Source: an uncultured Chloroflexia bacterium (GTDB lineage: Bacteria; Chloroflexota; Anaerolineae; JAAYZQ01). Taken from it: DNA of 64,000 nucleotides. The stretch lies in assembly GCA_963700285.1 (NCBI GenBank), contig CAVOXA010000009.1:128001-192000 (forward strand), in the 5' to 3' direction. The notes beneath the pieces were generated by a model. It had not been told where the DNA came from and ran no database searches. It saw only the letters and a list, made by a program, of their open reading frames with translations. Made by a program: the position numbers and the translations under genes. Below are positions 12,294 to 31,800 of this stretch, piece after piece. The stretch's first letter is position 1; every line of letters starts with the position of its first letter.

Positions 12294-12323
12294 TTGACAT
12301 TTTAGCCATATGTCTGGTATAAT
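12294..12323 (+). promoter_or_regulatory. Sigma70-type promoter of the glycan operon
   Basis: TTGACA (12294-99), 18-nt spacer, TG-extended TATAAT (12318-23). Confidence 0.8.
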
Positions 12324-12423: not shown

Positions 12424-13272
12424 ATGGGGGGGCATCAAAGGGGTACGGCTAATGCCTGGGAGATGGGGAAGGTCTTGGTTGTCATCCCCGCCTACAACGA
12501 AGAGGAATCAATACGAAGGGTTGTGGAGGGCGTAAACAAACACATCCCTCTGGCGGACGTTCTCGTCGTGGATGATGGCTCATCGGATGACACAAGCCTC
12601 CGGGTTCAAGAATCTGGCGCCGAGTTGCTTCGATTACCACGCAACTTGGGTGTTGGCGCGGCGCTAGAGGTGGCACTGCGGTATGCCGAGGATCTGGGCT
12701 ATTCTTATGCCCTGCGGGTGGACGCGGATGGGCAGCACGATCCACAAGACGCCCTTCGCCTGCTGGAGGCCGTCAGGCGAGGTGAAGCTGACGTGTTGAT
12801 CGGTTCCCGCTTCCTCGATGCTGGCTCCGCTGAGAGGCTGGGGGCACGGACGCCCAAGTGGCGGCATCAGACAACTCCGGTTCGGGCTGTGGGTATCAAG
12901 GTCTTTGCCTGGCTGGTGTCGCTCCTCATTGGCCAACAGATCTCGGATCCGACCTGTGGGCTGCGCTGCTTCAATCGCCAGGCCATGTGCTACCTCGCCC
13001 GGAACCATCCCCAGGATTACCCGGAGGTCGAGTCCATGGTCGTCCTGCACCGCGCAGGCTTTCGGCTGAAGGAATTGCCGGTGGAAATCTATCCGCGCAC
13101 TGGTGGCGTGAGTTCTATCAGTGCCTGGAAAGCGGTTTACTACGTCTTTCGGGTAATGCTGGCAGCCTCAATCGCTGCCGTAAGGAGCTTGCCAAACGGG
13201 AAACCTTTAGAGGTTGAATGGAGGCCAATGGAGCCCGAAAAGATCCCGGAGGAGGAACTCCATGTCGCCTAG
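12424..13272 (+). CDS. GT2 glycosyltransferase (DPM-synthase-like, polyprenol-phosphate sugar forming)
   Basis: VVIPAYNEE, VVDDGSSD, VDADGQHDP, IGSRF, DPTCGLR. GGAGG precedes ATG 12424. Confidence 0.88.
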   Translation: MGGHQRGTANAWEMGKVLVVIPAYNEEESIRRVVEGVNKHIPLADVLVVDDGSSDDTSLRVQESGAELLRLPRNLGVGAALEVALRYAEDLGYSYALRVDADGQHDPQDALRLLEAVRRGEADVLIGSRFLDAGSAERLGARTPKWRHQTTPVRAVGIKVFAWLVSLLIGQQISDPTCGLRCFNRQAMCYLARNHPQDYPEVESMVVLHRAGFRLKELPVEIYPRTGGVSSISAWKAVYYVFRVMLAASIAAVRSLPNGKPLEVEWRPMEPEKIPEEELHVA

Positions 13273-13717
13273 AACCCAAGTGATTGGCGTTGTCATTATC
13301 GTCCTGGCACTGGTTCTCATCATGGAATTGGTTCGTCGCCGGCGGCTGCGTACCGGGTACTCGCTGCTATGGCTGTTCACCGGCCTTGTCGTGCTGGTCC
13401 TGGCCATGTGGACAGGCTTGGTAGAGTACCTGACGCAGTTTCTAGGCGTCCGGTCTCCTGGATCGATGCTATTTGCAGCCGGTATCCTGTTTACCCTTCT
13501 TCTTCTGCTGGAGCACAGCCTTTCCCTTAGCACCCTGTGGCAAGATAACAAGTGCCTGACCCAAGAAGTAGCACTCCTGGAGTGGCGAATTCGCCAGCTT
13601 GAGGCATCCCTTGAGGGTGAGCCCGTGATTCCGCCTGCAGCCTCTCGAATGGAAGGGCAACCCGATGGTGAGGGGCTTCCCAACCTGGAGGAGGAGGTCT
13701 TTGAGCTTGCCAGGTAG
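13262..13717 (+). CDS. DUF2304-like small membrane protein
   Basis: LVRRRRLRTGYSLLWL, three TM helices and a C-terminal coiled segment LTQEVALLE. This family typically follows DPM-like GT2 genes. Confidence 0.8.
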   Translation: MSPRTQVIGVVIIVLALVLIMELVRRRRLRTGYSLLWLFTGLVVLVLAMWTGLVEYLTQFLGVRSPGSMLFAAGILFTLLLLLEHSLSLSTLWQDNKCLTQEVALLEWRIRQLEASLEGEPVIPPAASRMEGQPDGEGLPNLEEEVFELAR

Positions 13718-15392
13718 CAAGGTCATGGTCATCGGGTTGGATGGGGCCACGTTTGACCTGATCGAGCCCTGGGCCCAAGCACGCCATCTACCGACCTTTC
13801 AGCGCCTCATGGCGCAGGGAGCCTATGGCTCGTTGCACAGTACGATTCCCCCCATGACCGCCCCTGCCTGGACATCCTTTATGACCGGCAAGAACCCCGG
13901 GAAGCATGGCCTCTACGACTGGATCTACCGCTGTGACGATAGCTACGGCGTTTCCCCGGTGACAGCTGCGCGCTGCCATGAGCCAACTCTCTGGTCGCTC
14001 CTGAGCAATGCAGGACGGCGGGTCTGTGTTATAAATGTACCCATGACATTCCCGCCCACGAGGGTGAACGGAGCAATGATCTCTGGCTTGCCTGCCCCTT
14101 CCACCCGAGTGACCATCACCTACCCGCCTGATCTCTTGGAGGAGATCGAGGATAAAGTCGGCGAGTATCTGCTGTATCCCGATCCTGGCCAAGCCTATTC
14201 GGACAGCGGAGTGGATGCCTTTCTGGACAACCTGTACCGTACGACCGAAACCCGCCTGCGCGTGCTGGACTACCTGCGCGCCGGGGAAGATTGGGATTTT
14301 TTGATGCTGGTTCTCAATGGTACCGACACGGTCCAGCATGCCATGTGGAAATACATGAGTGCCGATCATCCACAGCACCAACCGGGCAAGCGAGAGAAGT
14401 ATGGCGATGCCATTCTGCGCTACTTTCAGTATGTGGATCGGGTTTTGGACCGGATCGTCGCCAGTCTGGACGACAGCACCACGTTGGTCATCATGTCCGA
14501 TCATGGCTTTGGGCCCTTTCACAAGTTCATACATCTCAACAATTGGCTGCGCCATGAGGGGTGGCTTCAGATCAAGGGCAGCCCTTGGGCATCCGTCAAG
14601 TCTGGTTTATTTGGCCTGGGGCTTACACCTATGGGGGTTTACAATCTGCTTATGCGCTTGGGCATGGGGGCATTCAAGCGCGAGGTAGTGCGCGGCAGGG
14701 GCCAAGGGCTTCTGAGAAAACTGTTTCTCTCCTTCGATGATGTGGATTGGCAGCATACGGCGGCATACTCGCTGGGCAATGTCGGCCAGATCTGCCTCAA
14801 TGTCCGGGGACGTGAGCCGCAAGGCTGCGTGGAGCCTGGGAGGCAGTATGAGGCCATACGCAGTGAGATCATGGACCATCTACGCCAACTGCGGGATCCA
14901 CAGACGGGCGAGCGGGTCGTGGAAGTAGTCTATCGACGTGAGGAGGTCTACTGGGGTCAAAATGTCGAGATGGCTGCTGACATTGTCTTTATCCCGACGC
15001 GATTGGAGTATTTTGGATTCGGTGAGTACGAGTTTGGTTCCAACGAGATCATTGAGAGCGTGGAACGCGGTATTTCTGGGACCCACCGGCTCAACGGGAT
15101 GGTGCTGCTTTGGGGAGCGGCAGCTTCCGCAGGCGCACATCTCAGAGATGCCCAAATCATTGACCTGGCACCTACTATCCTGCGTATTCTGGGCGAAGCG
15201 GCGCCTGATGATATGGATGGCCAGGTATTGACGCAAGCTCTCAACTCAGAGTACGCTGGCCAGTGGCCCACTGGAGGTCCTCCAGCACCCGAGTCCACCT
15301 TTCCAGCATCCGTTGCTGTGGCCGAGTACCTGACAGATGAGGACAAGGAACTCATTGCCGATCGATTGCGCGGCCTGGGCTATGTTGGATAG
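13701..15392 (+). CDS. Alkaline-phosphatase superfamily (type I phosphodiesterase/NPP-like) protein
   Basis: VIGLDGAT, STIPPMTAPAWTSFMTGKNPGKHG, MSDHGF, GTHRLNG, C-terminal RLRGLGY. TTG start after GAGGAGG. Confidence 0.88.
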   Translation: MSLPGSKVMVIGLDGATFDLIEPWAQARHLPTFQRLMAQGAYGSLHSTIPPMTAPAWTSFMTGKNPGKHGLYDWIYRCDDSYGVSPVTAARCHEPTLWSLLSNAGRRVCVINVPMTFPPTRVNGAMISGLPAPSTRVTITYPPDLLEEIEDKVGEYLLYPDPGQAYSDSGVDAFLDNLYRTTETRLRVLDYLRAGEDWDFLMLVLNGTDTVQHAMWKYMSADHPQHQPGKREKYGDAILRYFQYVDRVLDRIVASLDDSTTLVIMSDHGFGPFHKFIHLNNWLRHEGWLQIKGSPWASVKSGLFGLGLTPMGVYNLLMRLGMGAFKREVVRGRGQGLLRKLFLSFDDVDWQHTAAYSLGNVGQICLNVRGREPQGCVEPGRQYEAIRSEIMDHLRQLRDPQTGERVVEVVYRREEVYWGQNVEMAADIVFIPTRLEYFGFGEYEFGSNEIIESVERGISGTHRLNGMVLLWGAAASAGAHLRDAQIIDLAPTILRILGEAAPDDMDGQVLTQALNSEYAGQWPTGGPPAPESTFPASVAVAEYLTDEDKELIADRLRGLGYVG

Positions 15393-15407
15393 AGGTCGCG
15401 AACCGCG

Positions 15408-16274
15408 ATGATTCATAATGGCTTCACTGTCGATTTGGAGGACTGGTTCCAGGGCCTCACCAGCACGAACCCCTACCCAGAAAAATGGGCGGACTACGAG
15501 GCGCGTCTGGAAGGCAATACGGAACGTTTGCTCGCCCTGCTGGAGCGATATGGTGTCCATGCTACTTTTTTTGTCCTGGGCCACGTAGCGGACCAGTATC
15601 CAGCGTTGATCCGCCGCATCGACGCTGCGGGTCACGAGATCGGTGTGCACGGCTACTGGCACGACATGGTTCACCGCCTCACACCTGAGCAATTCTCGCT
15701 GCAGCTGGAACGGGCGTTTGAGGCATTGGAACCCCTGGTAAGCCAGCCGATTTTGGGGCACCGCGCACCCTACTTTTCCATAAACCGGCATGCGCTCTGG
15801 GCGCTGGAGGTGCTGGCAGACAAGGGGTTCACCTACGACAGCAGTTTCTTTCCCACGCGCAATACGCTCTATGGTTATCCCGAGGCTCCCCGATTTCCCT
15901 GCCGGCTGGCAACCGCCGGCGCAGCCGGGGCTACCCGGAATGGCAATGCTAGCTCTCGTCTGGTGGAGTTCCCGGTGTCCACTGCCCGCTGGCTGGGCGT
16001 TAACTGGCCAATCGGGGGGGGCTTTTACGTTCGAGCCCTGCCCTATGCCATCATCCGTGCGGGGATCCACCAGCTCAACCATCAGGGTCAACCAGCGATC
16101 ATGTACATGCATCCCTGGGAGTTGGACGTAGGGCAGCGCTTCGACAAAGTGACATTGCGCGAGCGGGTGACCCACTACTATGGCCGGCGAGGCCTGATGA
16201 AGAAGCTAGACCAGATGTTTCAGGACTTTGCCTTTGTACCGCTGGGGCGGTTGCTTGACTTTGTGCCCGCGTGA
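15408..16274 (+). CDS. Polysaccharide deacetylase (CE4; DUF3473/PEP-CTERM-locus type)
   Basis: FTVDLEDWFQ, ATFFVLG, HEIGVHGYWH, GHRAPYFS, GGGFYVR, YMHPWELD. Confidence 0.9.
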   Translation: MIHNGFTVDLEDWFQGLTSTNPYPEKWADYEARLEGNTERLLALLERYGVHATFFVLGHVADQYPALIRRIDAAGHEIGVHGYWHDMVHRLTPEQFSLQLERAFEALEPLVSQPILGHRAPYFSINRHALWALEVLADKGFTYDSSFFPTRNTLYGYPEAPRFPCRLATAGAAGATRNGNASSRLVEFPVSTARWLGVNWPIGGGFYVRALPYAIIRAGIHQLNHQGQPAIMYMHPWELDVGQRFDKVTLRERVTHYYGRRGLMKKLDQMFQDFAFVPLGRLLDFVPA

Positions 16275-16313
16275 GATACCGTAGGGCAGTTCGATCGAGT
16301 CCAGGGGGACAGC

Positions 16314-19300
16314 TTGGCTAACGTGGAACGGCGAGCGATGGGCCTCGCCATGGACGTGCAGCCTGGCACGGTTGTTCCAGGCTGGGGCGCCAGCCTGGCA
16401 GGCTTGTTTATCGTGCTCAGTCTGATAGCGGCCTTTCTGGCTGTGGGCCTCGGCCTACCAGCCCATCTGCCCCTGCAAGCAGCGAGCTGGCTCACCTTCC
16501 TCGCGGTCGTGATTGCCCCCGGCTATATCCTGGGTGAGATTGTCACCTGGCGCCTTGACCTGGACCTGCTCGAGCGGCTGGCGATGGCCATGCCTCTGGG
16601 GGTGGTTGTGATGGTGGCACCGGGCCTGGTAGCGATGCTGGGACATCTGGTGATCGAAGACCTGGCAGTGGGCTGGACGCTGACGGTAGGCTGCCTGATC
16701 GCGCTGTGGTTCATCCATAGGCTGCTGCTACGCAACGATTCCCGTCGTTCCATCAGTCCGCCGTGGCGCTGGTCCGACGTTGCCATGCTCCTGCTGCTGG
16801 CTGCGGCCTTTGTCTATGTGTTTCCCACACTCTCCTTGTACAAGATGGATGGGGATGCTTATGGCGTCGCTACCTTTACCGCCGACGCACTGACGGGCCG
16901 CCCACTGAACGCCACCGAACCGATCCTGGGTACTGGCAGGAGCATGGGCACCATCCGTATGGGGATGAACCAGTTGCTGCCTGTCTTTCACTTGTGGGCC
17001 TATTTCTCTCGAGCGGACCACATAGAATTGCTGGGTACCGCCTCACGGTCAATGCTGGCATTGTGGGCAATTCTGGCGTCCTACATGCTGGGCAAGGCAG
17101 CCGGACGCGGCAGCCGGCGCGTGGGATTCCTAACGGCCTCCATCCAGATGCTCGTATACCTGGCCGCGCCCTTTGTCCGTGTGGATCATGTGAGCATCTT
17201 TTTCTTTGAGCGAACCAACGCCGACAAGTTCACCGTCACAGTCACCATGCTGCCGGTGGTTGCTGCTCTGGCGATCCGCTATGTAGGTACGGGGCGTCGG
17301 GATACGTGGATCGCGCGCGCCACGTGGCTGGCGGCTGCCCTGGCCGCCTTTGCGGTATCCAGCATTCACGCACTCATCGCCGCCATGCTAGCTCTGGCCC
17401 TAAGCGCCTTTGGTGGTCTGCACCTCCTCGTCAATCTACGACGGCGCGAGGCGTGGATCCGTGTCGGTGGGCTTGCCCTCCTGACGGTGATTGTGATGAT
17501 CATGCCGCTGATCCAGCTCTTCGAGGCGCGCAGCGGAGAGGCCATGGCTCCCACGTACCCCTCCAGCTTTCAGGGCTGGTCCATTGAGGAGAGGCTGATG
17601 CCCATTCTGCCCTCGGCCCTCTCCTCCCGCTTTCACTCTATCATACCCTCATACCAGATACCAGGCCTGGATGTGTACGGCCCCCTCCCCGATCTGGCCT
17701 ACCTGGACGCGGAACAGGTCAACACTTCCACCAATCCCTTTCTGATCTGGCGCTTTGCAGTCAACATGCGTCGACAACGCATCATCGTGTTCGACCTGGA
17801 GCGTTACATTTCGGATCCGACCCTGATCCTGGAGCCTCCCTATCTGCTTGCTTTGCTCCTTCTGCCATTCCTCTTGTGGCGGCTACGTTCCGACCCTGGC
17901 GTCCAGTTCTGCTTGAGTACCTCTTTGGCCGTGCTGTTTGTCCTATTCAACCCAATCCTGACGCCCATCCTTGGCTCGCTGGTCATGCCCTGGATCCTGT
18001 GGCGGTTTGTCTGGCTGCTGCCCTATGCGCTCATCATTGCCCTGGTGTTCGACAGGTTGTTGGCTGCCTTCGTCTGGCCTCTGACCCGCTGGCCCAGGCT
18101 CAAGCCGGTCAGAGCCGCATTGGTGGCCATTGGTTCTCTGGGCTTTGTCGTTCTTGCTGCCCTGTTTTTGCGGCAGAATGTTGCGACAAATATCGAAGAA
18201 ATACAGGCACGAGGGGCAGCCCCTTTGGTCTATGCTACCCCAGACAAAATCCTGGCTCGTCTACGACGAGAGACTGCCCGGGATGGCCCGGTCATGGTCT
18301 TGGCTGACAGCAACCTCAGCGTGACGATTCCAGCGTTCGCTGGCAATGCAGACGTGGTGGCCCATCGCATTCTTGGAACGGCCGAGATGTTTCCCGCAGA
18401 TCAGCAGGACCTGGCGCTGCAGCGTCACATCGACCAATACGAGTTCCTCAACACAGCTCTGCTAACACCCCTACACATCGAAATACTGGAGCGGTATGAC
18501 GTTCGCTATGTCGTAGTGCCTGTCGGTACAAGCCTGGAGACGCAACTGCGACTCTCGCCGCAGTGGTTCGAGTGGTTGGTAGCCGATGAGGGCTATAGCC
18601 TGTACGCTGTGCATCAGCGTCCCAGTGTCACCGAGAGTGTGCTGGGAAACGCTGCTTTTCTCGAGCGCCGCTGGGAGGCGGCGTCAACCCACTACCAAAA
18701 CGCACTTGATCAAGATGTAAGTCCTGGCGCAGCCAGTACCGCAGGCGACAGCGGGTCCGGCATGCTGGCCCTGCTGGGACAGGCCGATATTTATCGCGTC
18801 AATGGCCAATTTGACCGCGCTCTCCTGACTCTCCGGCAGGCATTGGCCCAGGCGGAAACTGGCTCCACGGCAGATGGCAGGGAGGCTCCTGCATTGCATT
18901 ACCGCATGGGGCAGGTCTACGCAGACATGGGACAGCTGGAAGGGAGCATCGAGGAGTTCGATCTGGCTCAGCGAGGAGATCCCTCAAGCTTTGCATACCA
19001 CATGGCCCTGGGCGACGCTTGCCTGAGCGCCAGGCAAAGTGAATGCGCGCAAGAGCAGTTCAGGGCTGCAGTAGAACCATTGGGTCTGGCAGACGAAGCC
19101 CAGCGCCTCATGCTGCTGGGCAGCATCTGGCAGCAAAGGGCAGATGATGGCCTGGCGCTAGCCCTCTATGAACAGGCTGCAGTGGAGAGACCTGGCGAAC
19201 AGACCCAACTTGCGCTGGCAGACATGCACCGGAACGCGGCGCAGTTTGATAGGGCTGAAGCGTTGCTCCTTGCACTGCGCCAGAGGTATCCTCTCTGGGT

Positions 19301-22300: not shown

Positions 22301-25300
22301 GCAGGGCAACAACGAAGCGGCGGCGAACTGGTACCGGCAAGCCAATGACCTGCGCCCAGGTGAGCGGGCGGCTTATCTGAACCTGATAGATCTATTGCTC
22401 AGCCAGGGCGAAAACCTGGAAGCTCTGAGAATAGCCCAGAAAGCTATCGGAAACCGGCCTGGGGACAGCGAGCTGCTTCTTCGCCAGGGCCGCATCCAGC
22501 GGATCCTGGGAAGGTATGCCGACGCCGAGCCGGCGCTGCTGCAGGCTGCCCATCTAGATCCCTTTAACGACAGCATTCCAGCCGAATTGGCGGCCGTCTA
22601 CGAGGCGCAGGGCAAGTTGGAAAAAGCCATTGTTGCCTACGATGATGCGGTTTCACTCAATCCTGAACAAGGAGCTTATTACGTGGCCCTGGGCCGGCTT
22701 TGGTCCGCACGAGGGCGACCGGAGCACGCGCTCTCTCTGCTTGAGAGCGCTCTGCTCCAGGTGTCCCGCCCGACGCCCCTGTATGTTGCCATGTCTGACC
22801 TCTATCTGCGTCGTGGTGAGCCCAGGCTGGCCCGGGAGATCCTCGAAGAAGGCATCGAAGCGTTGGGCGAGGACGCCCTGCTCCGGCAAGCCCTGGGCGC
22901 CTACTACCGGTCCCAGGCCGAGTTCGATCGAGCCGAAGAGACCTATCGTGACGCGGTGATCCAGCAGCCTGATGAGTATGCAGCAGATGCAAGCCAGGGG
23001 CATCTGGCCCTGGGGGGGTTTTACCTGAGCCGCGGACGTGTCGAAGAGGCGCTGACTGAGTATGAACAGGCCGCGGCTTCCGGCGCCGTGGCCGCTGCCG
23101 GTGGCGAGGCGCGCGCACTCCTGGCCCTGGGCAATGCCTACCGGGCCATGGGACGAACGGAGCAGAGCATTGATGCCTATTCCCGGGCGACTGAATTGGC
23201 TCCCAGGTCGGAAGACGCCTACAGTGGTTTGGCATCTGTGTATCGCAGCCAGGCTCGATGGCAGGACGCCCGAAGGACGCTGCAGAGTGGGCTGGCGGTT
23301 GTACCTACTTCGGGCCGGCTATTGATGGATCTCAGTGACCTGCTCCTGCAGCGGGGGGAGGTGGATGGAGCCCTTGATCTCTTGGATCAAGCGGTTCAGC
23401 TCTCGGCCAGCGCCAGGACTTATGTGGCCAGGGCCGCTCTGTACCGCGTGCTGGGACGGCCCGATGACGCGGTGCGCGACTTGGAGATGGCGCGCCAGAT
23501 CGAGCCTGGCTCTGTCGAAGCACTGGTTGCCCTGGGCAGTTTGTACCGGTCGCTGGGTGATGTCGCAGGGGCAAAAGAGGCATACAGGCTGGTTCTTTCG
23601 CTGGTACCTGGCACGGCGGCGTCTCACCTGGGCCTCGCAGAACTGGCCCTCGACCAGGGCCAACTACATGAAGCTTGGTGGCAGTTTGATGCTGCCCAGA
23701 AGGTCGAACCGGCTTCATCCGCCCCATTGTTGGGCCTGGCCGCGGCGCGTTCCAGGCAGAATAACTGGGATGAGGCCGAAGCGGCCTACCGTCAAGCGGC
23801 GGAGTTGGCTCCTGGAGCGACTGCGCCTTATATTGGTCTGGCCGACCTTGCCCAACGCCGTACGGGCAGCACGGCGGATGCCTTGGCCGTGCTCGAGCAG
23901 ATTGATGGCCCAGGACCGAGTCGTGGTACTGTCCAGCGTGCGATGGCCGGGATCTGCCGTAGCTCTTCAGCTTCTGCCAAGTGCCAGCCAGACCTCGTGG
24001 CTGAAGCCCTGCTCGAGGCGGCTCGATTGGAACCGGACAGGCCGGAAGCATATCTTTCCCTGGCGGATCTCTATCTGGCCGAGGGGCGCCCCCTCGAAGC
24101 CGGGCCCAATGTCTCCCTGGCTGAGGAGATCGCCCCGTGCGATCCTGCTGTCCATGTTGCTCAAGGCAACGTCCATCATGCGCTTGGCGATCCAGCGGCG
24201 GCTGAAAGTAGCTACCGGGAAGCCATCAGACTGGATGCCACGCGAATGGATGGACACGTGGCCCTGGCGCGATTCTATGTGGTAGAAGAAAACTATGCCG
24301 AGGCTGTAGCCGCATACCAGGAGGGCATTCGGCGGTTTCCCCTGGAGTGGTCGCTCTGGCTTTCGCTGGGCAATGTGTATCTAGCCATGGAATCGTATGC
24401 CGATGCCCTTTCTGCGTTCCAGCAGGCAGCCAAGATGAATCCTAATGCTCCCGAGCCGTGGCTGGGCCAGGGCGACGCGCAGATGGCCAGGGAAAAGTGG
24501 GAGGCAGCCCAGGAGGCCTACGAGCAGGCGCAGCGCTTGGACCTACAGCAGGCTGAAGCCTTGCTGCGCCTGGCCAGTCTCGCAGAGGAGCAAAAGAAGG
24601 CAGACAAGGCCATCCAGTATGCACGCCAGGCTGTGAAAGTCGATCCCACTCTGGCCGCTGGCTATGTAGCCCTGGGTCGCTTGCTGCAGGAGAAGGAACA
24701 GATCGGTGAAGCGGCAGATGCCTTTCTGTCGGCCATCCAACTCGATCCCCGCCGGCATGCAGCCTACAACCGTTGGATGTGGTGCTATATGGACATAAAG
24801 CGCGTGCCCTACAGTGTGGACAGGAGCCGCCTGGAGGCCGAGTTGGCCAAGATAGCCAATGGAGATCAATTGGAGACCGTATGGGCCCAGACACTCTTGG
24901 GGTTGGGCTACCTGACCCTGGAGGAGGACATCGAGCGGGCCATACAGCATCTGGAGAAGGCAGCCGAGATGGATCCCACCTATGCTGAGCTGTACCAGGA
25001 TCTGGCTCTGGCTAACGAGGAGGGCCGAGATGGCCCGCGCGCGCTGGAATGGTGGCAGAGATATCTGTATGCAGCACGCCCGAGTACGGACACCAGCGAG
25101 GCACAGAAGCACATCGACAATCTGAAACTGGTTTCTATCGAGCAGCCAGCGACTGGCGATCGGGTATCTGGAAAGGTGAAAATAGTCGGTACAGCCAAGG
25201 GTAGGATGGTCCAGTCCTACAAGTTAGTATTCCGGGCCGTGGGTTCGGAAGAGTGGTCATCAATTGGTACCGGGGCTGAACGGATCGAGAGTGGACTGTT

Positions 25301-25424
25301 GGCTACGTGGGATACCATTGGACTCTCACCAGGTGAATATCAGCTCCGGCTCGACGTGGTCAGGTCGGATGAAGATGTCAGGCCCTATGATGAGATCACG
25401 GTCATAGTCCAGCCATCGAACTGA
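16314..25424 (+). CDS. Giant 3036-aa protein: multi-pass GT-C-like membrane domain, very long TPR array, C-terminal Ig-like domain
   Basis: Uninterrupted 9.1-kb ORF. The first ~630 aa hold many TM helices, followed by a soluble module (VLAD..ILERYDVRYVVVP). About 2150 aa of TPR-like repeats (LG..Y...G...EA...Y..A...P) follow. The start could instead be ATG 16338. Confidence 0.85.
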   Translation: MANVERRAMGLAMDVQPGTVVPGWGASLAGLFIVLSLIAAFLAVGLGLPAHLPLQAASWLTFLAVVIAPGYILGEIVTWRLDLDLLERLAMAMPLGVVVMVAPGLVAMLGHLVIEDLAVGWTLTVGCLIALWFIHRLLLRNDSRRSISPPWRWSDVAMLLLLAAAFVYVFPTLSLYKMDGDAYGVATFTADALTGRPLNATEPILGTGRSMGTIRMGMNQLLPVFHLWAYFSRADHIELLGTASRSMLALWAILASYMLGKAAGRGSRRVGFLTASIQMLVYLAAPFVRVDHVSIFFFERTNADKFTVTVTMLPVVAALAIRYVGTGRRDTWIARATWLAAALAAFAVSSIHALIAAMLALALSAFGGLHLLVNLRRREAWIRVGGLALLTVIVMIMPLIQLFEARSGEAMAPTYPSSFQGWSIEERLMPILPSALSSRFHSIIPSYQIPGLDVYGPLPDLAYLDAEQVNTSTNPFLIWRFAVNMRRQRIIVFDLERYISDPTLILEPPYLLALLLLPFLLWRLRSDPGVQFCLSTSLAVLFVLFNPILTPILGSLVMPWILWRFVWLLPYALIIALVFDRLLAAFVWPLTRWPRLKPVRAALVAIGSLGFVVLAALFLRQNVATNIEEIQARGAAPLVYATPDKILARLRRETARDGPVMVLADSNLSVTIPAFAGNADVVAHRILGTAEMFPADQQDLALQRHIDQYEFLNTALLTPLHIEILERYDVRYVVVPVGTSLETQLRLSPQWFEWLVADEGYSLYAVHQRPSVTESVLGNAAFLERRWEAASTHYQNALDQDVSPGAASTAGDSGSGMLALLGQADIYRVNGQFDRALLTLRQALAQAETGSTADGREAPALHYRMGQVYADMGQLEGSIEEFDLAQRGDPSSFAYHMALGDACLSARQSECAQEQFRAAVEPLGLADEAQRLMLLGSIWQQRADDGLALALYEQAAVERPGEQTQLALADMHRNAAQFDRAEALLLALRQRYPLWVKPDAHLRILSALARLRADEGRVDEAVALFQSIIGLQEQLAQDTRSTRLVLAQTLLDASVDAPDSDAYRFDRVREEIERVLSLQPHSAAAYILLGNLYRAQYEPRLAMEAYRYALRLDPTEAAAYTSLSDQHRQQATPPDETLALMQSAVAFNPEQAILAISLADQFRRMGDVDMAITTYQRALGWFDLGSAAVAPGSSSGPQPTGRIRSLSYSRLAALYEDLGQVDTAMNYYRAAVTAAPEQAWSWVTLGDALRRRNRASAAEEAYRTAIQEDPAQVDAYLHLASLTSDRGDSSGASELSEQALQIALDGSNLAQTSRAWLALGSYYSQSPQEQIEFGSDGDFFTGDDSTSPVTARAMVAYHQALEAEESVAGVRALASLYQDSGQTEEAISLYKQRIQAGERDRWVPSLLAQYYVGLGDAYLDGRQLEKAMAAFAQAVDLDGWWSGARLALARGYSEQGDQRRALAEILRATEISPGAAEAQLSLAGALDEQEDSEQALAIYQATAQAHPGSSPANLALARAWLDRYHWDMAEQSYRQAMAMVPGDTEAYLGLASLYILRARADEAEVLLNKAMEIDRSNPETYLRLGALLARRARHAEALDAYRQAVQMSGPWQEPRGADLAQTAIYAGLAGVQRALGEFGQAEESLKRAVEVNKASTASGTVAAPLLQLAGLYREQNQPDKVEQTLLLALDMLLDDAASDSRGSPSGASQSMLRVRLALAEFYQSMAQSDKALETLHLAVEENPDSMAALTGYASQLRLMGRVEEADLLYLQAQDAAEPTGAGYQALAAAYQAQGQESVAMALLNEATIRDPRDVGAWIQKGRLQMQLDQQSGELEIENPSSAWVAALEQATELEPAQGRTWNALGNTLLAAVNDGGDEGAGTGYSAGWDRGTAALKQAIAVEPMYLPAYGALLEAYREPSPSSSSPSMPWRSEQALEIVEMVRLTAPGSHLGHLYEARVQEDLQRWAQAREALKLAMIQAPGLPEAYVAMGQLEQLQGNNEAAANWYRQANDLRPGERAAYLNLIDLLLSQGENLEALRIAQKAIGNRPGDSELLLRQGRIQRILGRYADAEPALLQAAHLDPFNDSIPAELAAVYEAQGKLEKAIVAYDDAVSLNPEQGAYYVALGRLWSARGRPEHALSLLESALLQVSRPTPLYVAMSDLYLRRGEPRLAREILEEGIEALGEDALLRQALGAYYRSQAEFDRAEETYRDAVIQQPDEYAADASQGHLALGGFYLSRGRVEEALTEYEQAAASGAVAAAGGEARALLALGNAYRAMGRTEQSIDAYSRATELAPRSEDAYSGLASVYRSQARWQDARRTLQSGLAVVPTSGRLLMDLSDLLLQRGEVDGALDLLDQAVQLSASARTYVARAALYRVLGRPDDAVRDLEMARQIEPGSVEALVALGSLYRSLGDVAGAKEAYRLVLSLVPGTAASHLGLAELALDQGQLHEAWWQFDAAQKVEPASSAPLLGLAAARSRQNNWDEAEAAYRQAAELAPGATAPYIGLADLAQRRTGSTADALAVLEQIDGPGPSRGTVQRAMAGICRSSSASAKCQPDLVAEALLEAARLEPDRPEAYLSLADLYLAEGRPLEAGPNVSLAEEIAPCDPAVHVAQGNVHHALGDPAAAESSYREAIRLDATRMDGHVALARFYVVEENYAEAVAAYQEGIRRFPLEWSLWLSLGNVYLAMESYADALSAFQQAAKMNPNAPEPWLGQGDAQMAREKWEAAQEAYEQAQRLDLQQAEALLRLASLAEEQKKADKAIQYARQAVKVDPTLAAGYVALGRLLQEKEQIGEAADAFLSAIQLDPRRHAAYNRWMWCYMDIKRVPYSVDRSRLEAELAKIANGDQLETVWAQTLLGLGYLTLEEDIERAIQHLEKAAEMDPTYAELYQDLALANEEGRDGPRALEWWQRYLYAARPSTDTSEAQKHIDNLKLVSIEQPATGDRVSGKVKIVGTAKGRMVQSYKLVFRAVGSEEWSSIGTGAERIESGLLATWDTIGLSPGEYQLRLDVVRSDEDVRPYDEITVIVQPSN

Positions 25425-25449
25425 ATCCGCAGCTCGCAGAGGAGATCGC

Positions 25450-26598
25450 ATGACAGAACAATCCAGCCCTGACCTTGTTGACCAGGTCAGCCCTGAGTAC
25501 GCCGAACGGGCTTGGGAGATCGGTACATATCAGGAGGACGACAAGGTCGGAGTCCTGGATCTTGTCCGGGACGAGTACGGTGAAACCGATCTTGCGGATG
25601 GAGATTACTTTGACTGGCTGAGACTGGCCTGTCCTCCAGACGTCGGCCAATGGGTCGTCAGAGAAAAGGGGACCGGCCGGGTAGTCAGCGCCGCTACAAT
25701 GGTTGGCGTTCAGGCCATTTGGAAGGGAAATGAGATCAAGGCTCTCCTGGGCTTTAACTTTCTTGTTGCCCCCGAGTACCAGCGCCAGGGGATCCACACC
25801 GCGTTCACCAGGCAGACAAGAGAGGACATACGACGGGCTGGCTACTGCTTCACCACCCTATTTCCGAATCCCAAATCCATGCCGCAACTGGTCCGTTCAG
25901 AGAACTATCACCATGTTTCCCAGGTGCCGCTGCTTGTGCGTCCTCTGAACATGCGCGCGCTGGCCGAGGCGAGGGTCAAGAACCAGCTTCTCGTTTGGGC
26001 AAGCTCCCTGGGTTGGGGCTTCGCAGGTCGCGTCATCTGGCGTGAGCCAGGCCCCCCTCATGTCGACCCACCTCTGCATATTTCGGAAGACCTCGTACTT
26101 GACGAAGGCTACGACCGCTTTTGGCGTCAGGTGCAGACCAAGTACGATCTCATGCTGGTTCGTGACCGGGCATTCCTGACGTGGCGCTTTCTCGATATCC
26201 CAACGCGAGAGTACCAGATCCTATCGGCGCGGCAGGGTGATGGGGTTCTGGGTTACATCGTGCTGCGCCAGGCAGATGCCCGGGGGACCATGTCTGGGAT
26301 CATTGCTGATTTCCTGGTCCTGCCCGGGGAGCAAGGAACCTGGGCAGGACGGCATTTGCTACACGAGGCTCTGCGGCAGTTTAGGGAAGCACAGATGCCC
26401 TTAGCCGGGGGGCTGGTACTGCCGCATACGCACGAGTATACACTCATGCGCGACGCGGGGTTCCTGAGCGTTCCGGAACCTGTTGCACCCCAGCCTTTCA
26501 ATCTGTTTGTCCGGAGTCACAGTGATGACCCTCCGCTGGAGGCGCTCACCTGCCCTGAAACCTGGTACGTTTCCATCGCCGATCATGACGCCGTCTAG
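25450..26598 (+). CDS. GNAT-family acyltransferase (two-domain)
   Basis: FLVAPEYQRQGI acyl-CoA motif, FPNPKS, VRDRAFLTWRF. GAGGAG RBS. Confidence 0.8.
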   Translation: MTEQSSPDLVDQVSPEYAERAWEIGTYQEDDKVGVLDLVRDEYGETDLADGDYFDWLRLACPPDVGQWVVREKGTGRVVSAATMVGVQAIWKGNEIKALLGFNFLVAPEYQRQGIHTAFTRQTREDIRRAGYCFTTLFPNPKSMPQLVRSENYHHVSQVPLLVRPLNMRALAEARVKNQLLVWASSLGWGFAGRVIWREPGPPHVDPPLHISEDLVLDEGYDRFWRQVQTKYDLMLVRDRAFLTWRFLDIPTREYQILSARQGDGVLGYIVLRQADARGTMSGIIADFLVLPGEQGTWAGRHLLHEALRQFREAQMPLAGGLVLPHTHEYTLMRDAGFLSVPEPVAPQPFNLFVRSHSDDPPLEALTCPETWYVSIADHDAV

Positions 26599-26661
26599 AC
26601 TCCGAAGAGGCTCAATCCTGAGCGGATCCGTGGCCTGGCTTCCTCTGGGGGACGTGATTAG

Positions 26662-27846
26662 ATGAGCTTGTCATTCGGCCGCGCTGTGTTGTTCTTGGTG
26701 GCTACCTGCCTTCTTGGTCAGGCCGTGACCGGCTTTTCCTGCGCTGAGGCGCCAGGTGCCCAGTCCGGCCAAGGCAAGGCGACTACGCCCCCGCGAAAAA
26801 ACGGTGAGGCCATCTACCGGATTGCGGCAGCCTATCCTTTCTGGCGAGCAGCCTCCTTGCCGGTGGACGAGATCCCATTCAAGTATTTGGACCAAATCGA
26901 CCACTTCTCTGTCCATCCAGGTACCCACGGCATGTTGGATGTCCCGAATGGCTTTATGATGCCTACGTTGGTCAAGCAGGCCCACCTCGCAGAGAAACGC
27001 ATTATTCTGGTTGTTGGCGGCGCGAAGGACTATGGCGCCTTCGCTGCCATGGTCGCGGAGCCGAGTGATAGGACATCCTTTGTCCGGAACCTGGTTGCCT
27101 TCGTGATGGAGCACGGCTATGATGGTGTAAACATCGACTGGGAATTCCCGCAGACGTCTGCTGACCGGCAGAACCTGAGCGTCCTGATGGCCGAGTTGAG
27201 AGCCGGCCTTGATGCCACAGGCCGGGATCTTGAACTGAGCATTGCAGTGACTTCCAACGAAAAGCGAGGTGAGTGGGTCGATGCTGAGGCCATTGCCCCC
27301 CTGGTGAGCCATTTTGTGGTGATGACCTTTGGCTACTATGGCGCTTGGGGATCCGAGTCTGGGCACAATGCCCCGCTGTATCCAGTGCCGGTTGCCAGTG
27401 ATTCTCGCTGTGTGGACCAGAGTCTGAGCTACTGGGCGGAGGCCCGAGGCGTGCCCTGGTCCAAGCTCTACATGGGTATCGCGTCCTTTGGGCTTGAGTT
27501 CGACAGCGAGGGCCTCTACCAACCCCTTCCCGATAACCCAGTGGTGTCCAAGGCGAACTACCAAGACATCAAGCCACTGATCGGTGCTGGATATACCCGC
27601 CACTGGGACAGCGCGGCCCAGGTGCCCTATCTCACCCTGGACGACGGCCCAGGAGTGTGGAGCTATGATGATCCTCAGTCCATTGGTCTCAAACGCGAGT
27701 ATGCTCTGGCCAAAGGTATGGGGGGCGTTGCCGTCTGGGATGTAACCATGGATCGCGTTGATGGCGAGCACGAGTTGCTGCAAGTGCTGGCCCACACACC
27801 GGCTCCGCACAGGGCTTTTGTCCCCCTGGTACTGAGAGGCAAGTAA
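26662..27846 (+). CDS. Secreted GH18 (chitinase-like) glycoside hydrolase
   Basis: Signal-like N-terminus, LVVGG, YDGVNIDWEFP (DxxNxDxE), SGHNAPLY, SYDDPQSI..K, GGVAVWD. Confidence 0.9.
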   Translation: MSLSFGRAVLFLVATCLLGQAVTGFSCAEAPGAQSGQGKATTPPRKNGEAIYRIAAAYPFWRAASLPVDEIPFKYLDQIDHFSVHPGTHGMLDVPNGFMMPTLVKQAHLAEKRIILVVGGAKDYGAFAAMVAEPSDRTSFVRNLVAFVMEHGYDGVNIDWEFPQTSADRQNLSVLMAELRAGLDATGRDLELSIAVTSNEKRGEWVDAEAIAPLVSHFVVMTFGYYGAWGSESGHNAPLYPVPVASDSRCVDQSLSYWAEARGVPWSKLYMGIASFGLEFDSEGLYQPLPDNPVVSKANYQDIKPLIGAGYTRHWDSAAQVPYLTLDDGPGVWSYDDPQSIGLKREYALAKGMGGVAVWDVTMDRVDGEHELLQVLAHTPAPHRAFVPLVLRGK

Positions 27847-27916
27847 ATGGAAATCGCTGTGTCAATGACAAGACTGGGACCGAGCTTCTAACCGCTGCCC
27901 TTACAAAGGAGTGAAG

Positions 27917-29059
27917 ATGAACCTACGAATCAACCAAAGACAAACTCGGCGCCCTCGTGCCAGCAGCACTGTGCGGTGTATGGCCCGGAAGGCTATTCTG
28001 GTCGTGGCGTTGCTTGTTGTCTCATTGCCTGCCGCTTTGTCGCCTGGTGGCGTGGCGGCGCAGCAGCCAGACTTGTCTCAACTGCCCATCAGTTTCCCGG
28101 TGCACGCACCAGAGGTCGCAGCCTACTTTAACGAGATGGCCCGTCCTGGCGATTCCGCATCCGTTCTGCCGGATCGCCACTTTCTGCTTTCCCAAACCGA
28201 GGTAGGAGAAAAGATGTTGGCCTTTCGCTCGTGGAGTGAAGCGGAATTGCAGCTCGAGAGCTTGGCCGAGCCGGTGGAGTGGATCATGTACAATCCCGAG
28301 CACTGGGAGTTCACGCCGGAGGATGAGCAGCAGGACCTGGCGACCATCGTCCAAGAGTTTGCTGAGGCGGTCCATGCCCGCGATATGAAGTTCATGTTCA
28401 CGCCGGACCGCCAATACGCGGAACTCTATCTCGGCCAGGTGGCGCCTCACGTGGATGCCGTGATGCTCCAAGGCCAGCGCCTGCAGCACGATCCGCAGAC
28501 CTTTGCCGCTTGGGTGCTGGGCATGGCTGACGTGGCGCACAAAGCCAATGAGGATATCCAGGTCTACGTTCAGGTGGGAGCGACGCGAGGCACCGCGGAG
28601 GAGATGTACGCTGCAATCGAGACGGTGGCCGGCGATATCGATGGGATCGCCGTCTGGTCCATGCCCCGGACGCTGGAAATCTTGCAGGAGTTTGTGACTT
28701 TGGTTCGCGGGGATCTGCCGGAAGTTCCTGCTACGGCGCAAGCTACCGCTGTACCATCTGCGGTTCCCACTGTTACGCCAACTGTGGCTGTCCCGACGGA
28801 AACCGCAACGACGCTGCCCCCGTCGCCTACGCCGGCAGTTACCCCGACCATGGAGCCCTCACCAACCAGCCAGGCTGAGGTGCACCCAGCCGAAATCGCA
28901 GCATCTCCAGCCATGCCAGCCGAGGCGCCGGCAAGCCAGGCGGGAGGCACGGAACCGCTAGGGGGTTGGGTGACGAGCCTCTTGCTGTTCGTCGGTGGCA
29001 TGGGAGTCGGCCTCGTGTTGGGCTTTGTGCTGGGCTGGAGCCTGAGGCGTGGTGCGTAG
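27917..29059 (+). CDS. Secreted putative TIM-barrel protein with Pro/Thr linker and C-terminal TM anchor
   Basis: Signal peptide (..GGVAA/QQ), alternating beta/alpha pattern (WIMYNPEHW, VDAVMLQGQ, IDGIAVW), a PT-rich stretch, and a hydrophobic tail ending in RR. Confidence 0.7.
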   Translation: MNLRINQRQTRRPRASSTVRCMARKAILVVALLVVSLPAALSPGGVAAQQPDLSQLPISFPVHAPEVAAYFNEMARPGDSASVLPDRHFLLSQTEVGEKMLAFRSWSEAELQLESLAEPVEWIMYNPEHWEFTPEDEQQDLATIVQEFAEAVHARDMKFMFTPDRQYAELYLGQVAPHVDAVMLQGQRLQHDPQTFAAWVLGMADVAHKANEDIQVYVQVGATRGTAEEMYAAIETVAGDIDGIAVWSMPRTLEILQEFVTLVRGDLPEVPATAQATAVPSAVPTVTPTVAVPTETATTLPPSPTPAVTPTMEPSPTSQAEVHPAEIAASPAMPAEAPASQAGGTEPLGGWVTSLLLFVGGMGVGLVLGFVLGWSLRRGA

Positions 29060-30305
29060 GATCGAAACCCCACCCCCGGCAGATCCGGCTTCCCGAAACT
29101 GGGTGCCGATGGCACCGGCGCTCCGCTCACGCAACTTTCGTCTCTTCTGGATCGGGCAGAGCGTGTCGACTATGGGCACCTTTCTGCAGGTGGTCGCCGA
29201 AAGCTGGCTCATCTACCAACTCACCGGCTCAACACTTTGGCTCGGTGTGTTAGGCGTGGTTGGCCTGCTGCCCGTGGTACCCATTGCGTTCCTGGGCGGC
29301 GCGCTGGCCGACCGCGTCCCCCGACGGAAGCTGATCATGGTTACCCAGATCGGTCTCTTGGCCCAGGCCGCGGTCTTTGGTTTGTTGGTTGCCACGGACA
29401 ATATCAGCGTCTGGAGCATCATCATCCTGGACTTTGTGATGGGCGCCTTCTATGCCATTGACCAGCCCGCCCGCCAGGCATTTCTGCCAGAGCTTGTCGC
29501 CGAGGCTGATCTGCCCAATGCAGTGGCTCTCAACTCGGCTGTTTTTCAGCTCTCACGTGTGCTTGGCCAGGCCGCCGCGGGTGTACTCATCACGACGATC
29601 GGGGCAGGGGGTACCATGCTCCTCAACGCGGCCACGTTTCTGGCGCCCGTTGTCGCCCTGGCCATGATTCGGGTCAAGGACGTGCGGGCTGATGCTGTGC
29701 CTGCCTCACTCGGATCGGCGCTCTCTGAAGGCGTCATCAGCCTGTACCGGCAACCGACTCTTGTGGGTACCATCAGCTTGATGGTCACTGTTGGGGGGCT
29801 GCCGCTGGCAATCTCCTTGATGATGCCGGCCTTTGCAACGGAGGTTACCCAGACCGACGCTATGGGCCTGGGCTTGCTCCTGGCTGCGGGGGCTGTGGGC
29901 GCGGTGCTCAGTACCTTCGTGGTGACCAAGATCCACCAAGGACAGCGGGGCCATGCGGTGCTCGTGTCCAGCCTTCTTTTGCCTCTCTCTATGATAGCAT
30001 TCTCAGCCTCTCGCAGCATGCCCGTAGCGTGCCTCATTCTGCTGTGTGTGGGCTTGATCCAGTCCGTACTATATGCCGAATCAACTACACTGGTACAGAT
30101 GGGTGTCCCAGACAGGGTGAGAGGGCGCGTGATGAGTCTGTATGGCATGCTGATCATCGGCGTACCCAAGCTGACGGGCATGCTGATCGGTGGGCTGGCC
30201 GAACGTACCGGCCTGCCACTGATCATCGCTCTCTCCAGCGCCCTTGGCCTGCTGTATGTGCTGGGTCTGCACCTACTGATGCCCTCCGTCCGCAAACAGG
30301 CTTGA
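29049..30305 (+). CDS. MFS transporter (DHA3/MFS_3-like)
   Basis: ALRSRNFRLFWIGQ, GGALADRVPRRK, DQPARQAF, RGRVMSLY; about 12 TM helices. Confidence 0.9.
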   Translation: MVRRIETPPPADPASRNWVPMAPALRSRNFRLFWIGQSVSTMGTFLQVVAESWLIYQLTGSTLWLGVLGVVGLLPVVPIAFLGGALADRVPRRKLIMVTQIGLLAQAAVFGLLVATDNISVWSIIILDFVMGAFYAIDQPARQAFLPELVAEADLPNAVALNSAVFQLSRVLGQAAAGVLITTIGAGGTMLLNAATFLAPVVALAMIRVKDVRADAVPASLGSALSEGVISLYRQPTLVGTISLMVTVGGLPLAISLMMPAFATEVTQTDAMGLGLLLAAGAVGAVLSTFVVTKIHQGQRGHAVLVSSLLLPLSMIAFSASRSMPVACLILLCVGLIQSVLYAESTTLVQMGVPDRVRGRVMSLYGMLIIGVPKLTGMLIGGLAERTGLPLIIALSSALGLLYVLGLHLLMPSVRKQA

Positions 30306-30524: not shown

Positions 30525-31634
30525 ATGATGACCCAGCAAACAGAAATCCTCTTTTCTCCCGCCAGGCTTGGGAGCCTGGAACTGAGAAACCGGCTGGTAC
30601 GTTCGGCTACAGCAGAACAACTGGCGACAGAGCCTGTAGGGCGGGCTACCCCCGCTTTGGCCGCGCTCTACCGCGATCTGGCGCGGGGCGGAGTAGGGCT
30701 GATAATCACGGGCCATGCCTACGTGTCCCCATCAGGCAAGGCGCATCCCGAGATGCTTGGCGTGCACTGCGATGAATTGATCCCCGGTCTGAAAACGCTG
30801 GCTGATGCCGTACATGCCGAGGGGGGCGCGATTGCCATTCAGATCCAGCATGGTGGGCGCCAGTCCACTGAGCATGTTGTACCGGAAACGATAGCTCCCT
30901 CGGCTGTGCCGATGCATTCCGGATCCACACCCCGCGAGATGACACAGGCTGAGATCGTGGAGACCATCGATGCCTTTGGGCAGGCTGCCCGGCGTGCCGA
31001 GCTGGCCGGGATAGATGCCGTACAGGTCCACGCTGCGCACGGCTACTTGATCAGCGAGTTTCTGTCGCCGCATACTAACCACCGTACCGACGTCTGGGGG
31101 GGCGATTTCGAGCGGCGGCTAGCTTTTTTGGGCGCCGTGTGCGAGGCCGTGCGGGGCCAGGTGGGCGCCGATTATCCAATATTCATCAAGCTGGGCATGA
31201 TGGACAACATAGACCAGGTGCCGGATGGATTGACCCCAGAAGACGGTGCCCGCATCGTTGCCCGCCTGGACGATTTCGGGCTGGACGGCGTGGAGGTGAG
31301 CGGCGCCTACGATGGTCCGGGCCGTTTCAACGTCCAGATGGGAGTCGGGACGAAAATCCCAGAAGCCTATTTCCGACCTCTGGCGCGACGCGCCAAAGCG
31401 GCCACAGATCTACCCGTGATGCTTGTAGGAGGACTCCGAAGCCGGAAGGTAATGGATGATGTGCTGGCTTCGGGCGATGCAGATTTCATTTCCCTTTGCC
31501 GCCCCCTTATCCGCGAGCCACACCTGCCGAACCGGCTACGTGCCGGTGAGGCGACGGTGGCTGCCTGCATATCTGGCGGGCGCTGCTGGCCCGAAGGGCT
31601 AGGCCAGGGCATACGCTGCCGGTGTGAGGCATAG
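30525..31634 (+). CDS. NADH:flavin oxidoreductase (old yellow enzyme family)
   Basis: LRNRLVRSAT, GLIITG, QIQHGGRQ, QVHAAHGYLISEFLSPHTNHRTDVWGG, C-terminal Cys cluster. Confidence 0.92.
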   Translation: MMTQQTEILFSPARLGSLELRNRLVRSATAEQLATEPVGRATPALAALYRDLARGGVGLIITGHAYVSPSGKAHPEMLGVHCDELIPGLKTLADAVHAEGGAIAIQIQHGGRQSTEHVVPETIAPSAVPMHSGSTPREMTQAEIVETIDAFGQAARRAELAGIDAVQVHAAHGYLISEFLSPHTNHRTDVWGGDFERRLAFLGAVCEAVRGQVGADYPIFIKLGMMDNIDQVPDGLTPEDGARIVARLDDFGLDGVEVSGAYDGPGRFNVQMGVGTKIPEAYFRPLARRAKAATDLPVMLVGGLRSRKVMDDVLASGDADFISLCRPLIREPHLPNRLRAGEATVAACISGGRCWPEGLGQGIRCRCEA

Positions 31635-31714: not shown

Positions 31715-31800
31715 GCCCCCGTGGCGGAACTGGCATACGCGGCAGGTTGAGGACCTGTGCTCGCAAGGGCGTGGAGGTTCAAATCCTCTCGGGGGCACCA
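31715..31800 (+). tRNA. tRNA-Leu (anticodon GAG)
   Basis: Acceptor stem GCCCCCG/CGGGGGC, anticodon arm GCAGG-TT GAG GA-CCTGT, long variable arm, GGTTCAAATCC T-loop, encoded CCA. Confidence 0.96.

Follow-up and report, generated by a model that had tools for sequence, protein, structure and literature searches.

We analysed a 64,000-nucleotide stretch (hereafter the window) of contig CAVOXA010000009.1, from an uncultured Chloroflexia bacterium, and focused on a run of nine genes that would encode a lipid-donor glycosylation pathway built around a giant membrane protein, in which a predicted GT-C glycosyltransferase domain is followed by a long array of tetratricopeptide repeats (TPRs). The features of the locus are collected in Table 1. 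As an earlier note on this DNA had claimed, the nine open reading frames (ORFs) are co-directional and tightly packed, all on the + strand and with no internal stops. The gaps between them are, in order, -11, -11, 15, 39, 25, 63, 64 and -11 nt, the second value assuming a TTG start for the AlkP gene (a start at 13722 would give +4). The single consensus promoter that had been placed ahead of the cluster was also found, with the arrangement TTGACA-18-TG.TATAAT, and it is the sole perfect match among 8 sites detected. The same hexamers, separated by a diverged spacer, are present in a locus from another genus (L013), and promoter-like sites with at least 10/12 matching positions lie upstream of the GT2 gene in 13 of 41 loci (two duplicate pairs included), versus 2 of 205 random windows.

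Pfam confirmed the family labels given to the window proteins: PF00535 for GT2, DUF2304, PF01663 for the AlkP/NPP enzyme, PF01522 with DUF3473 for the CE4 enzyme, TPRs, GNAT, GH18 and MFS_3 for the major facilitator superfamily (MFS) transporter. No Pfam family matched the N-terminus of the giant or the TIM protein of the window; their GT-C and TIM-barrel labels rest on fold prediction, which bore them out.

Table 1. Features of the glycosylation locus (window positions; TM, transmembrane segment)
Position	Strand	Feature	Basis
12294..12323	+	Sigma-70-type promoter, extended -10	12/12 consensus; also upstream of GT2 in relatives
12424..13272	+	GT2, polyprenyl-phosphate sugar synthase type (PpgS/GacI/ArnC/DPMS-like), predicted lipid-P-sugar donor maker	PF00535; PDB matches
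13262..13717	+	DUF2304 three-TM protein (GacJ/Rv3632-like), predicted GT2 activator	PF10066 84 bits, over cut-off; 3 TM
13707..15392	+	AlkP/NPP-fold enzyme, no signal peptide, C-terminal RLxxLGY tail; likely glycan sulfotransferase	PF01663; family flanks cysC
15408..16274	+	CE4 deacylase (XrtA-system deacetylase-like), no signal peptide; predicted ArnD-like step	TIGR03006 below cut-off; motifs
16314..25424	+	Giant, 3036 aa: GT-C + TPR array + Ig-like end	AlphaFold2 fold, invariant residues, topology
about 16338-18611	+	Giant part: 15-TM GT-C with oligosaccharyltransferase-like outer domain	Predicted fold
about 18612-25080	+	Giant part: TPR array, internally duplicated	TPR matches
about 25089-25421	+	Giant part: C-terminal Ig-like domain	Weak Big_7 match below cut-off
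25450..26598	+	Double-GNAT acyltransferase	Pfam; present where FemAB-like gene absent (window's genus, G002)
26662..27846	+	Secreted GH18 hydrolase, DxxNxDxE motif, C-terminal FVPLVLR tail	PF00704; lineage-specific addition
27911..29059	+	Orphan (beta/alpha)8 barrel (TIM protein), signal peptide, Pro/Thr linker, C-terminal TM anchor	Predicted fold
29049..30305	+	System-specific MFS transporter, candidate flippase for lipid-P-sugar	MFS_3/TIGR00900-like; own tree group

Searching with the N-terminal domain of the giant returned 50 loci, every one labelled Chloroflexota. Beyond the two closest relatives there were 48 loci, 32 of them with full flanks; since all were picked through the giant, the counts of conservation are conditional on its presence. 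The order GT2-DUF2304-AlkP-CE4-FemAB-like-giant-TIM-MFS was found in 32/32 fully flanked loci, with a DegT aminotransferase added in 31, so that seven of the nine window genes are kept in a fixed order and the cluster proved to be conserved across genomes. The 16 loci with short flanks were left out of the count, and their visible genes follow the same order; a second ‘DUF’ match in the locus scan is an artefact of the AlkP C-terminal tail and was ignored. This main locus type forms a complete unit of 13.5-16.1 kb. The FemAB-like gene is absent from the window, its genus mate and genome G002, where a GNAT and a GH18 gene precede TIM; DegT is missing from the window and genus-mate loci, and GH18 from loci L030-L077. 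Hence GNAT and GH18, which the earlier note had counted as members of the system, are indeed present in the window but are lineage-specific, the usual members being the FemAB-like protein and DegT. GNAT and the FemAB-like protein share no sequence similarity, and no FemAB-like or DegT ortholog was found elsewhere in the host genome, which is 89% complete (best partial matches at 28% and 31% identity). In locus L130 (G603 contig C37), the giant has 3,224 aa, an extra GNAT-like ORF and a second AlkP gene stand before it, and the TIM protein is longer.

Some giants of the same family, about 3,100 aa long, belong to a second, rearranged locus type, which continues into MurJ, Wzy_C, GT4 and WecG genes. 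The reported lack of Wzx/Wzy, a processive synthase and a porin held for the locus in the window, according to Pfam and NCBIfam scans of its proteins; as regards Wzx/Wzy it does not extend to the second type, which adjoins MurJ/Wzy_C genes. One second-type locus, L016 (G015), encodes right after the giant, at 12930-15338, an 803-aa second GT-C/TPR protein with PMT_2, TPR and an Ig-like end. The system is accessory: 18 of 121 genomes carry it in each of two orders (about 15%; 17 and 16 strong matches), only three weak partial matches appeared among 400 genomes drawn across the phylum, and there was no cultured strain among the carriers seen. No GC anomaly was detected over the cluster. The wider family of the giant comprises 619 clusters at 50% identity, whose members, where named, are only ‘TPR protein’ or ‘hypothetical’. 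Among 14 of them that were sampled, 8 had TPRs and 7 a DUF6077 match, and several measured 850-1010 aa.

The giant usually has about 2,000 aa in relatives; the form in the window owes its length to an internal TPR duplication and the Ig-like end. The GT-C domain was modelled with AlphaFold2 on 40 sequences (pLDDT 90.7), and all 25 Foldseek matches at E<=0.001 are GT-C enzymes (STT3, AftA, DPY19, AglB, PglB and ArnT). The top 11 VIA rows were also all GT-C (Z 16.7 to 11.3, rmsd 4.5-6.8), with Pmt1 at 16.7, AglB at 16.1, AftA at 15.3 and ArnT at 14.9. In the predicted fold, an 11-helix GT-C core is preceded by four additional helices at the N-terminus and accompanied by a soluble part resembling the AglB C-terminal domain (Z 9.4). 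In the homolog alignment, with residues counted from window position 16338, K169-D171-G-D173 is invariant and falls in the first outer loop of the core. E291-R292-D296-K297, H344 and W555-R556-F557 are invariant as well, and we take these residues to occupy GT-C catalytic positions, as in ArnT and PglB. According to the model, the N-terminal 760 residues of the giant are a GT-C glycosyltransferase fold, probably related to DUF6077/DUF6541 and equipped with invariant catalytic-type residues. DUF6541 matched 18 of the 40 giant homologs at E<=1 (best 3e-7), the window protein itself giving no match; the family also has matches in C. glutamicum and 4 in the host genome. Sequence searches with the GT-C domain gave 0 matches in PDB and nothing meaningful in NCBIfam, and a DUF6077 search of the host genome found no match, its controls being likewise silent.

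The alternation of basic residues (positive-inside) fits an N-in, C-out protein with 15 helices, so the TPR array, of 1,200-2,200 residues, is predicted to lie outside the cell. A conserved Cys pair within the TPRs fits this location, and the repeats also hold conserved R/E/N/W residues. A complex prediction of a TPR segment (about residues 760-1290) with the TIM barrel scored 0.00 and is evidence for neither side. The giant passed the cut-off for PrsT; we rejected this identity as the sum of many TPR repeats.

Regarding the donor, the best NCBIfam match of the GT2 is PpgS, at 100.3 bits, far below the cut-off of 370, with AglJ also among the best matches; in PDB, the best are DPMS and ArnC. 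A DUF2304 gene stands beside it in 32/32 fully covered loci. The GacI/GacJ and PpgS/Rv3632 pairs make polyprenyl-P-N-acetylhexosamine (HexNAc) for a GT-C, with GacJ in the role of activator (10.1101/180810), and this parallel, together with the family matches, supports the earlier proposal that GT2 and DUF2304 supply a polyprenyl-P-sugar to a GT-C.

The CE4 protein scored 266.6 bits against TIGR03006 (cut-off 276.2) and conserves the motifs DLEDW, HGYxH, RAPYF and HPWE; the catalytic motifs of DegT are conserved too, and the FemAB-like protein of a relative scored 169.5 bits against TIGR03019 (cut-off 260.35). A signal-like segment was detected in 0/24 AlkP, 0/33 CE4, 0/34 FemAB-like and 0/30 DegT proteins, versus 27/30 TIM proteins. 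Pel and poly-N-acetylglucosamine (PNAG) systems use an exported deacetylase, and in the ArnB/C/D/T logic an amino-sugar is tailored in the cytoplasm before GT-C transfer. Because these enzymes lack signal-like segments, the likely site of sugar tailoring by CE4, AlkP and the acyltransferases is the cytoplasm, in an Arn/PpgS-like manner, and their likely substrate is not an exported polymer as in Pel/PNAG, which corrects the analogy with those systems drawn in the earlier note.

The AlkP enzyme had been assigned to phospho-decoration, and sulfation now appears the likelier role. The only strong adenosine 5'-phosphosulfate (APS) kinase gene of the host, cysC, is part of a sat-AlkP-cysC-AlkP run, and the AlkPs there are members of the PF01663 family to which the cluster enzyme belongs too. 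This run lies at host contig C1:183600-188400 (L124) and has several frameshifts in the assembly. When the 30 cysC loci with the highest scores in 81 class-wide genomes were inspected, 15 had this AlkP family within 1.5 kb, and a C-terminal ExxxI..RL..LGY motif is common to AlkPs and to the APS-kinase tails of many relatives. Besides, in three second-type loci the genes immediately ahead of the giant encode two canonical sulfotransferases; in other loci this place is taken by one to three AlkPs. The AlkP-fold proteins Agl30 and Agl31 sulfate a Halobacterium glycan (PMC11980604). Because its family flanks cysC, sulfotransferases stand beside the giant in three loci and Agl30/31 set a precedent, we consider it probable from sequence context that AlkP sulfates the sugar rather than transferring a phospho group. 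Several findings weigh against sulfation: the cysC-linked AlkPs branch apart from the AlkP of the window, no cluster locus contains cysC, and the nucleophile position is Thr/Ser as in NPPs (Thr in the window). Two tandem AlkP paralogs, 40-42% identical, also occur in another polysaccharide-type locus of the host (contig C14:829000-832600, L125), whose neighbours resemble, by eye, GT4, ABC-2 permease and flippase ORFs.

In a quick tree, the cluster MFSs of both locus types formed one group (SH-aLRT 99) with respect to six other MFSs of the host genome. Since no GtrA or Wzx is encoded in the locus, the MFS is a candidate flippase for the lipid-P-sugar, and this is the weakest step of the pathway proposed below.

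The TIM protein was modelled with confidence (pLDDT 92.3) as a (beta/alpha)8 barrel, and most main-type homologs have a signal peptide, a Pro/Thr linker and a C-terminal anchor. An invariant N84-x-E86 follows strand 80-83, at the end of beta4, which is presumably the position of the GH18/GH85 catalytic acid (D/N-x-E). Sequence searches of PDB and Pfam gave only chance matches and no family, and the fold matches scored alike for many TIM families, which makes hydrolase activity no more than a lead: judging from the model, the protein is possibly a hexosaminide hydrolase or binder. Of 41 relatives, 10 have the giant; members of the TIM family were found in 7 of these 10 and in none of the others, even where the two are unlinked. 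A lipoprotein-like TIM form lies beside secreted proteins, away from the giant locus, in L128 and L129 (G015:C32 and G021:C10), and one of these neighbours resembles the FG-GAP proteins of second-type loci. The GH18 protein retains its catalytic motif. Its C-terminal tail (window 27800-27846) has company in the host: the internal rate predicts about 1 ORF with a [YF]LP[LI]xxR-type motif at its end, and 37 were counted; such an ending looks like a C-terminal sorting or anchoring signal. The single exosortase-family gene of the host (PF09721) is on contig C1, unlinked to the cluster.

In order to contextualize the cluster, we compared it with known systems. The earlier note held that it matches no standard architecture; by analogy, its logic does match three-component lipid-donor glycosylation (PpgS/Rv3632/Rv3779, GacI/J/L and Arn) and not Pel/PNAG, given that signal peptides are missing from CE4, AlkP and the acyltransferases. 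As in Arn operons, DegT, GT2, a cytoplasmic CE4 and a GT-C are joined in one operon in relatives; there is no ArnA or ArnE/F here and no outer-membrane marker was found in the host, whereas the TPR array, AlkP and TIM are extra. The outer domain of the giant resembles that of oligosaccharyltransferases (OSTs: STT3, AglB and PglB), but the sequon-binding motif of these enzymes, WWD, was found in 0/40 members of the family. With TMTC1-4 and their prokaryotic look-alikes, the giant shares an N-terminal GT-C, an odd TM number and outward C-terminal TPRs, but it differs in GT-C family (DUF1736, the TMTC loop, matched none of the 40 members at E<=1), in the OST-like soluble domain between GT-C and TPRs, in having 3-6x more TPR and in its own donor-tailoring genes. 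Gac (GacI/GacJ/GacK/GacL of Streptococcus) and GtrABC systems likewise have a lipid-P-monosaccharide synthase, a DUF2304 activator and an outward GT-C; here, in contrast, the locus has no Wzx/GtrA flippase, the main type has no backbone genes, and a giant TPR fusion and a secreted TIM barrel are present.

The corynebacterial PpgS/Rv3632/Rv3779 system (ppgS/cgp_0393/cgp_0658 in C. glutamicum) is alike in its PpgS-type GT2, adjacent DUF2304 and need for deacetylation and flipping, and perhaps in a DUF6541-related GT-C. There, the Rv3779 ortholog decorates arabinogalactan and the deacetylase and flippase are reported as unidentified (PMC9671496; a role of Rv3779 is also given in PMC3485146), whereas here CE4 and MFS are in the operon, genes for acylation and likely sulfation are added, and the GT-C bears the long TPR array. 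Agl30 and Agl31 have in common with the AlkP an AlkP-superfamily fold within a glycosylation cluster; Agl31 is cytosolic and their cloning primers indicate LxxLGY C-termini as in our proteins, but, as described, their matches are sulfatase-like, and the window enzyme is a PF01663 member with Thr at the nucleophile position (PMC11980604). XrtA/PEP-CTERM loci share the adjacent CE4 and FemAB-like pair seen in relatives (TIGR03006 and TIGR03019), but the scores here are below cut-offs and the exosortase is unlinked; PEP-CTERM was reported in outer-membrane bacteria only (PMC1569441). On the features tested, the cluster falls outside the PpgS, TMTC, OST, Pel/PNAG and XrtA systems. A literature search, which left supplements and most subscription journals outside, found no description of the cluster, and DUF6077, DUF6541 and DUF3473 went unmentioned in the papers that one of the queries listed. 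The novelty lies in a set of genes kept together: an unannotated GT-C family with a giant TPR array, an in-operon deacylase and acyltransferase, a likely AlkP sulfotransferase, an MFS as flippase stand-in and an orphan TIM barrel.

We tentatively favour a scheme, short of calling it probable, in which an amino-sugar, tailored and probably sulfated, would be built on a membrane lipid by the cluster and attached by the giant to an extracytoplasmic wall or matrix glycan. The core of this scheme, in which the sugar is tailored in the cytoplasm and a GT-C uses a lipid-linked donor, is very probably correct. GT2 and DUF2304, judging from their families, would load a HexNAc-type sugar onto polyprenyl phosphate; the donor would be an amino-deoxy sugar supplied by DegT in relatives and standard UDP-HexNAc in the lineage of the window, which has no DegT. 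At the inner face, CE4 would remove the acyl group from the sugar, itself linked to a nucleotide or to the lipid; GNAT or FemAB would put on a new acyl group or an aminoacyl group, and AlkP would likely sulfate the sugar. The MFS may then flip the lipid-P-sugar, the GT-C domain would pass the sugar, on the outer side, to an acceptor chain that the long TPR array would hold or guide, and the anchored TIM barrel and GH18 could trim or edit HexNAc-containing chains. Four observations favour a glycan acceptor: the link to DUF6541, the Wzx/Wzy-type genes next to second-type loci, the genes that resemble hydrolases, and TPRs that run much longer than those of TMTC. A more ambitious version, with a sulfated N-acylated hexosamine chain polymerised or heavily decorated by the DUF6077/DUF6541-type GT-C, an MFS flippase, an AlkP sulfotransferase and a TPR array of tens of nm that carries the product through a monoderm wall, seems doubtful to us as a whole. 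A monoderm host, as proposed before, is consistent with the lack of any Omp85 match in the 89%-complete genome, which does encode peptidoglycan transglycosylases.

Several observations count against the favoured scheme. The DUF6541 link is weak (hhalign against the giant family: probability 67%, E 5e-5), as is the further step to Rv3779, which we assume to be a member of that family. The fold matches do not separate acceptors, since Pmt1, AglB, Pmt4 and DPY19 score at least as high as AftA, and relatives with a short, TMTC-sized TPR tail are common. Profile comparison of TIM with GH18 was negative, with no detectable sequence kinship. The host genome also holds a GtrA-type flippase gene on another contig, which weakens the flippase role of the MFS, and 36 PMT_2 GT-C matches, so that a GT-C by itself is ordinary in this host, other enzymes could draw on the donor and the MFS may not be a flippase.

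Hence, one could argue that the same cytoplasmic donor route serves protein glycosylation of the TMTC kind, with the GT-C placing the tailored sugar, as a single unit, on Ser/Thr residues of proteins that are secreted or displayed on the surface and that the TPRs recognise, such as the Pro/Thr-linked TIM or FG-GAP proteins. GT-C plus outward TPRs is the TMTC architecture, which also occurs in uncharacterised prokaryotes (PMC7801869); the best VIA matches are protein-modifying GT-Cs, the family has TMTC-sized members, and the TPRs hold the conserved residues and Cys pair noted above. We find this unlikely, though it is the strongest competitor, given the lack of DUF1736 and WWD matches, TPR arrays far beyond the roughly 10 repeats of TMTC, and the hydrolase-like genes and Wzx/Wzy-type neighbours, which favour glycans.

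It is less probable still that the giant is itself a polymerase, using lipid-P-monosaccharides to make a hexosamine chain of its own on the outer side of the membrane and threading it along the TPRs, with TIM and GH18 releasing or sizing the product. Emb and Aft enzymes polymerise from polyprenyl-P-sugars, the main locus type is a complete unit that lacks backbone-synthesis genes, and TPR length is kept, at about 2,000 aa, in most homologs. A GtrA/GtrB-dependent glucan is also described in L. johnsonii (PMC7117936). However, we saw no direct sign of processivity, the host genome has other polysaccharide loci, and in the known three-component systems the GT-C attaches single sugars as side groups to a backbone whose genes lie elsewhere (PMC11194591). 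An Arn-type modification, placing the amino-sugar on a glycolipid and altering surface charge, would agree with ArnC and ArnT among the structure matches. The DegT-GT2-CE4-GT-C set likewise parallels ArnB-ArnC-ArnD-ArnT; still, a lipid acceptor would leave the huge TPR array and the secreted barrels unexplained, and with Omp85 not found in the host we regard it as very improbable. Finally, an exopolysaccharide locus of the Pel/PNAG or PEP-CTERM type is hardly credible: CE4 and FemAB are closest to XrtA-system families and the giant passes the PrsT cut-off through its many TPRs, but the locus has no processive synthase or porin, PelG was not found in the 89%-complete genome, the exosortase gene is on another contig, and CE4 and FemAB stay below the XrtA cut-offs and have no signal peptides.

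The analysis gives the unannotated GT-C family a predicted fold and a proposed pathway, and makes CE4 and MFS candidates for the open deacetylase and flippase steps of PpgS-type pathways. The data also point to a bacterial AlkP-fold family tied to APS kinase as likely glycan sulfotransferases. Anaerolineae, whose envelope chemistry is little known, form aggregates and are plentiful in sludge and sediments (PMC10608941). The accessory nature of the island, the many GT-Cs of the host and the lack of a cultured strain among the carriers seen limit the weight of these implications.

Downstream of the operon, an OYE gene (30525-31634) and a gamma-glutamyltransferase gene were rejected as members of the system, since among the fetched loci they had matches only in the same-genus genome. 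A tRNA-Leu(GAG) gene lies at window positions 31715-31800, 1.4 kb downstream of the operon.

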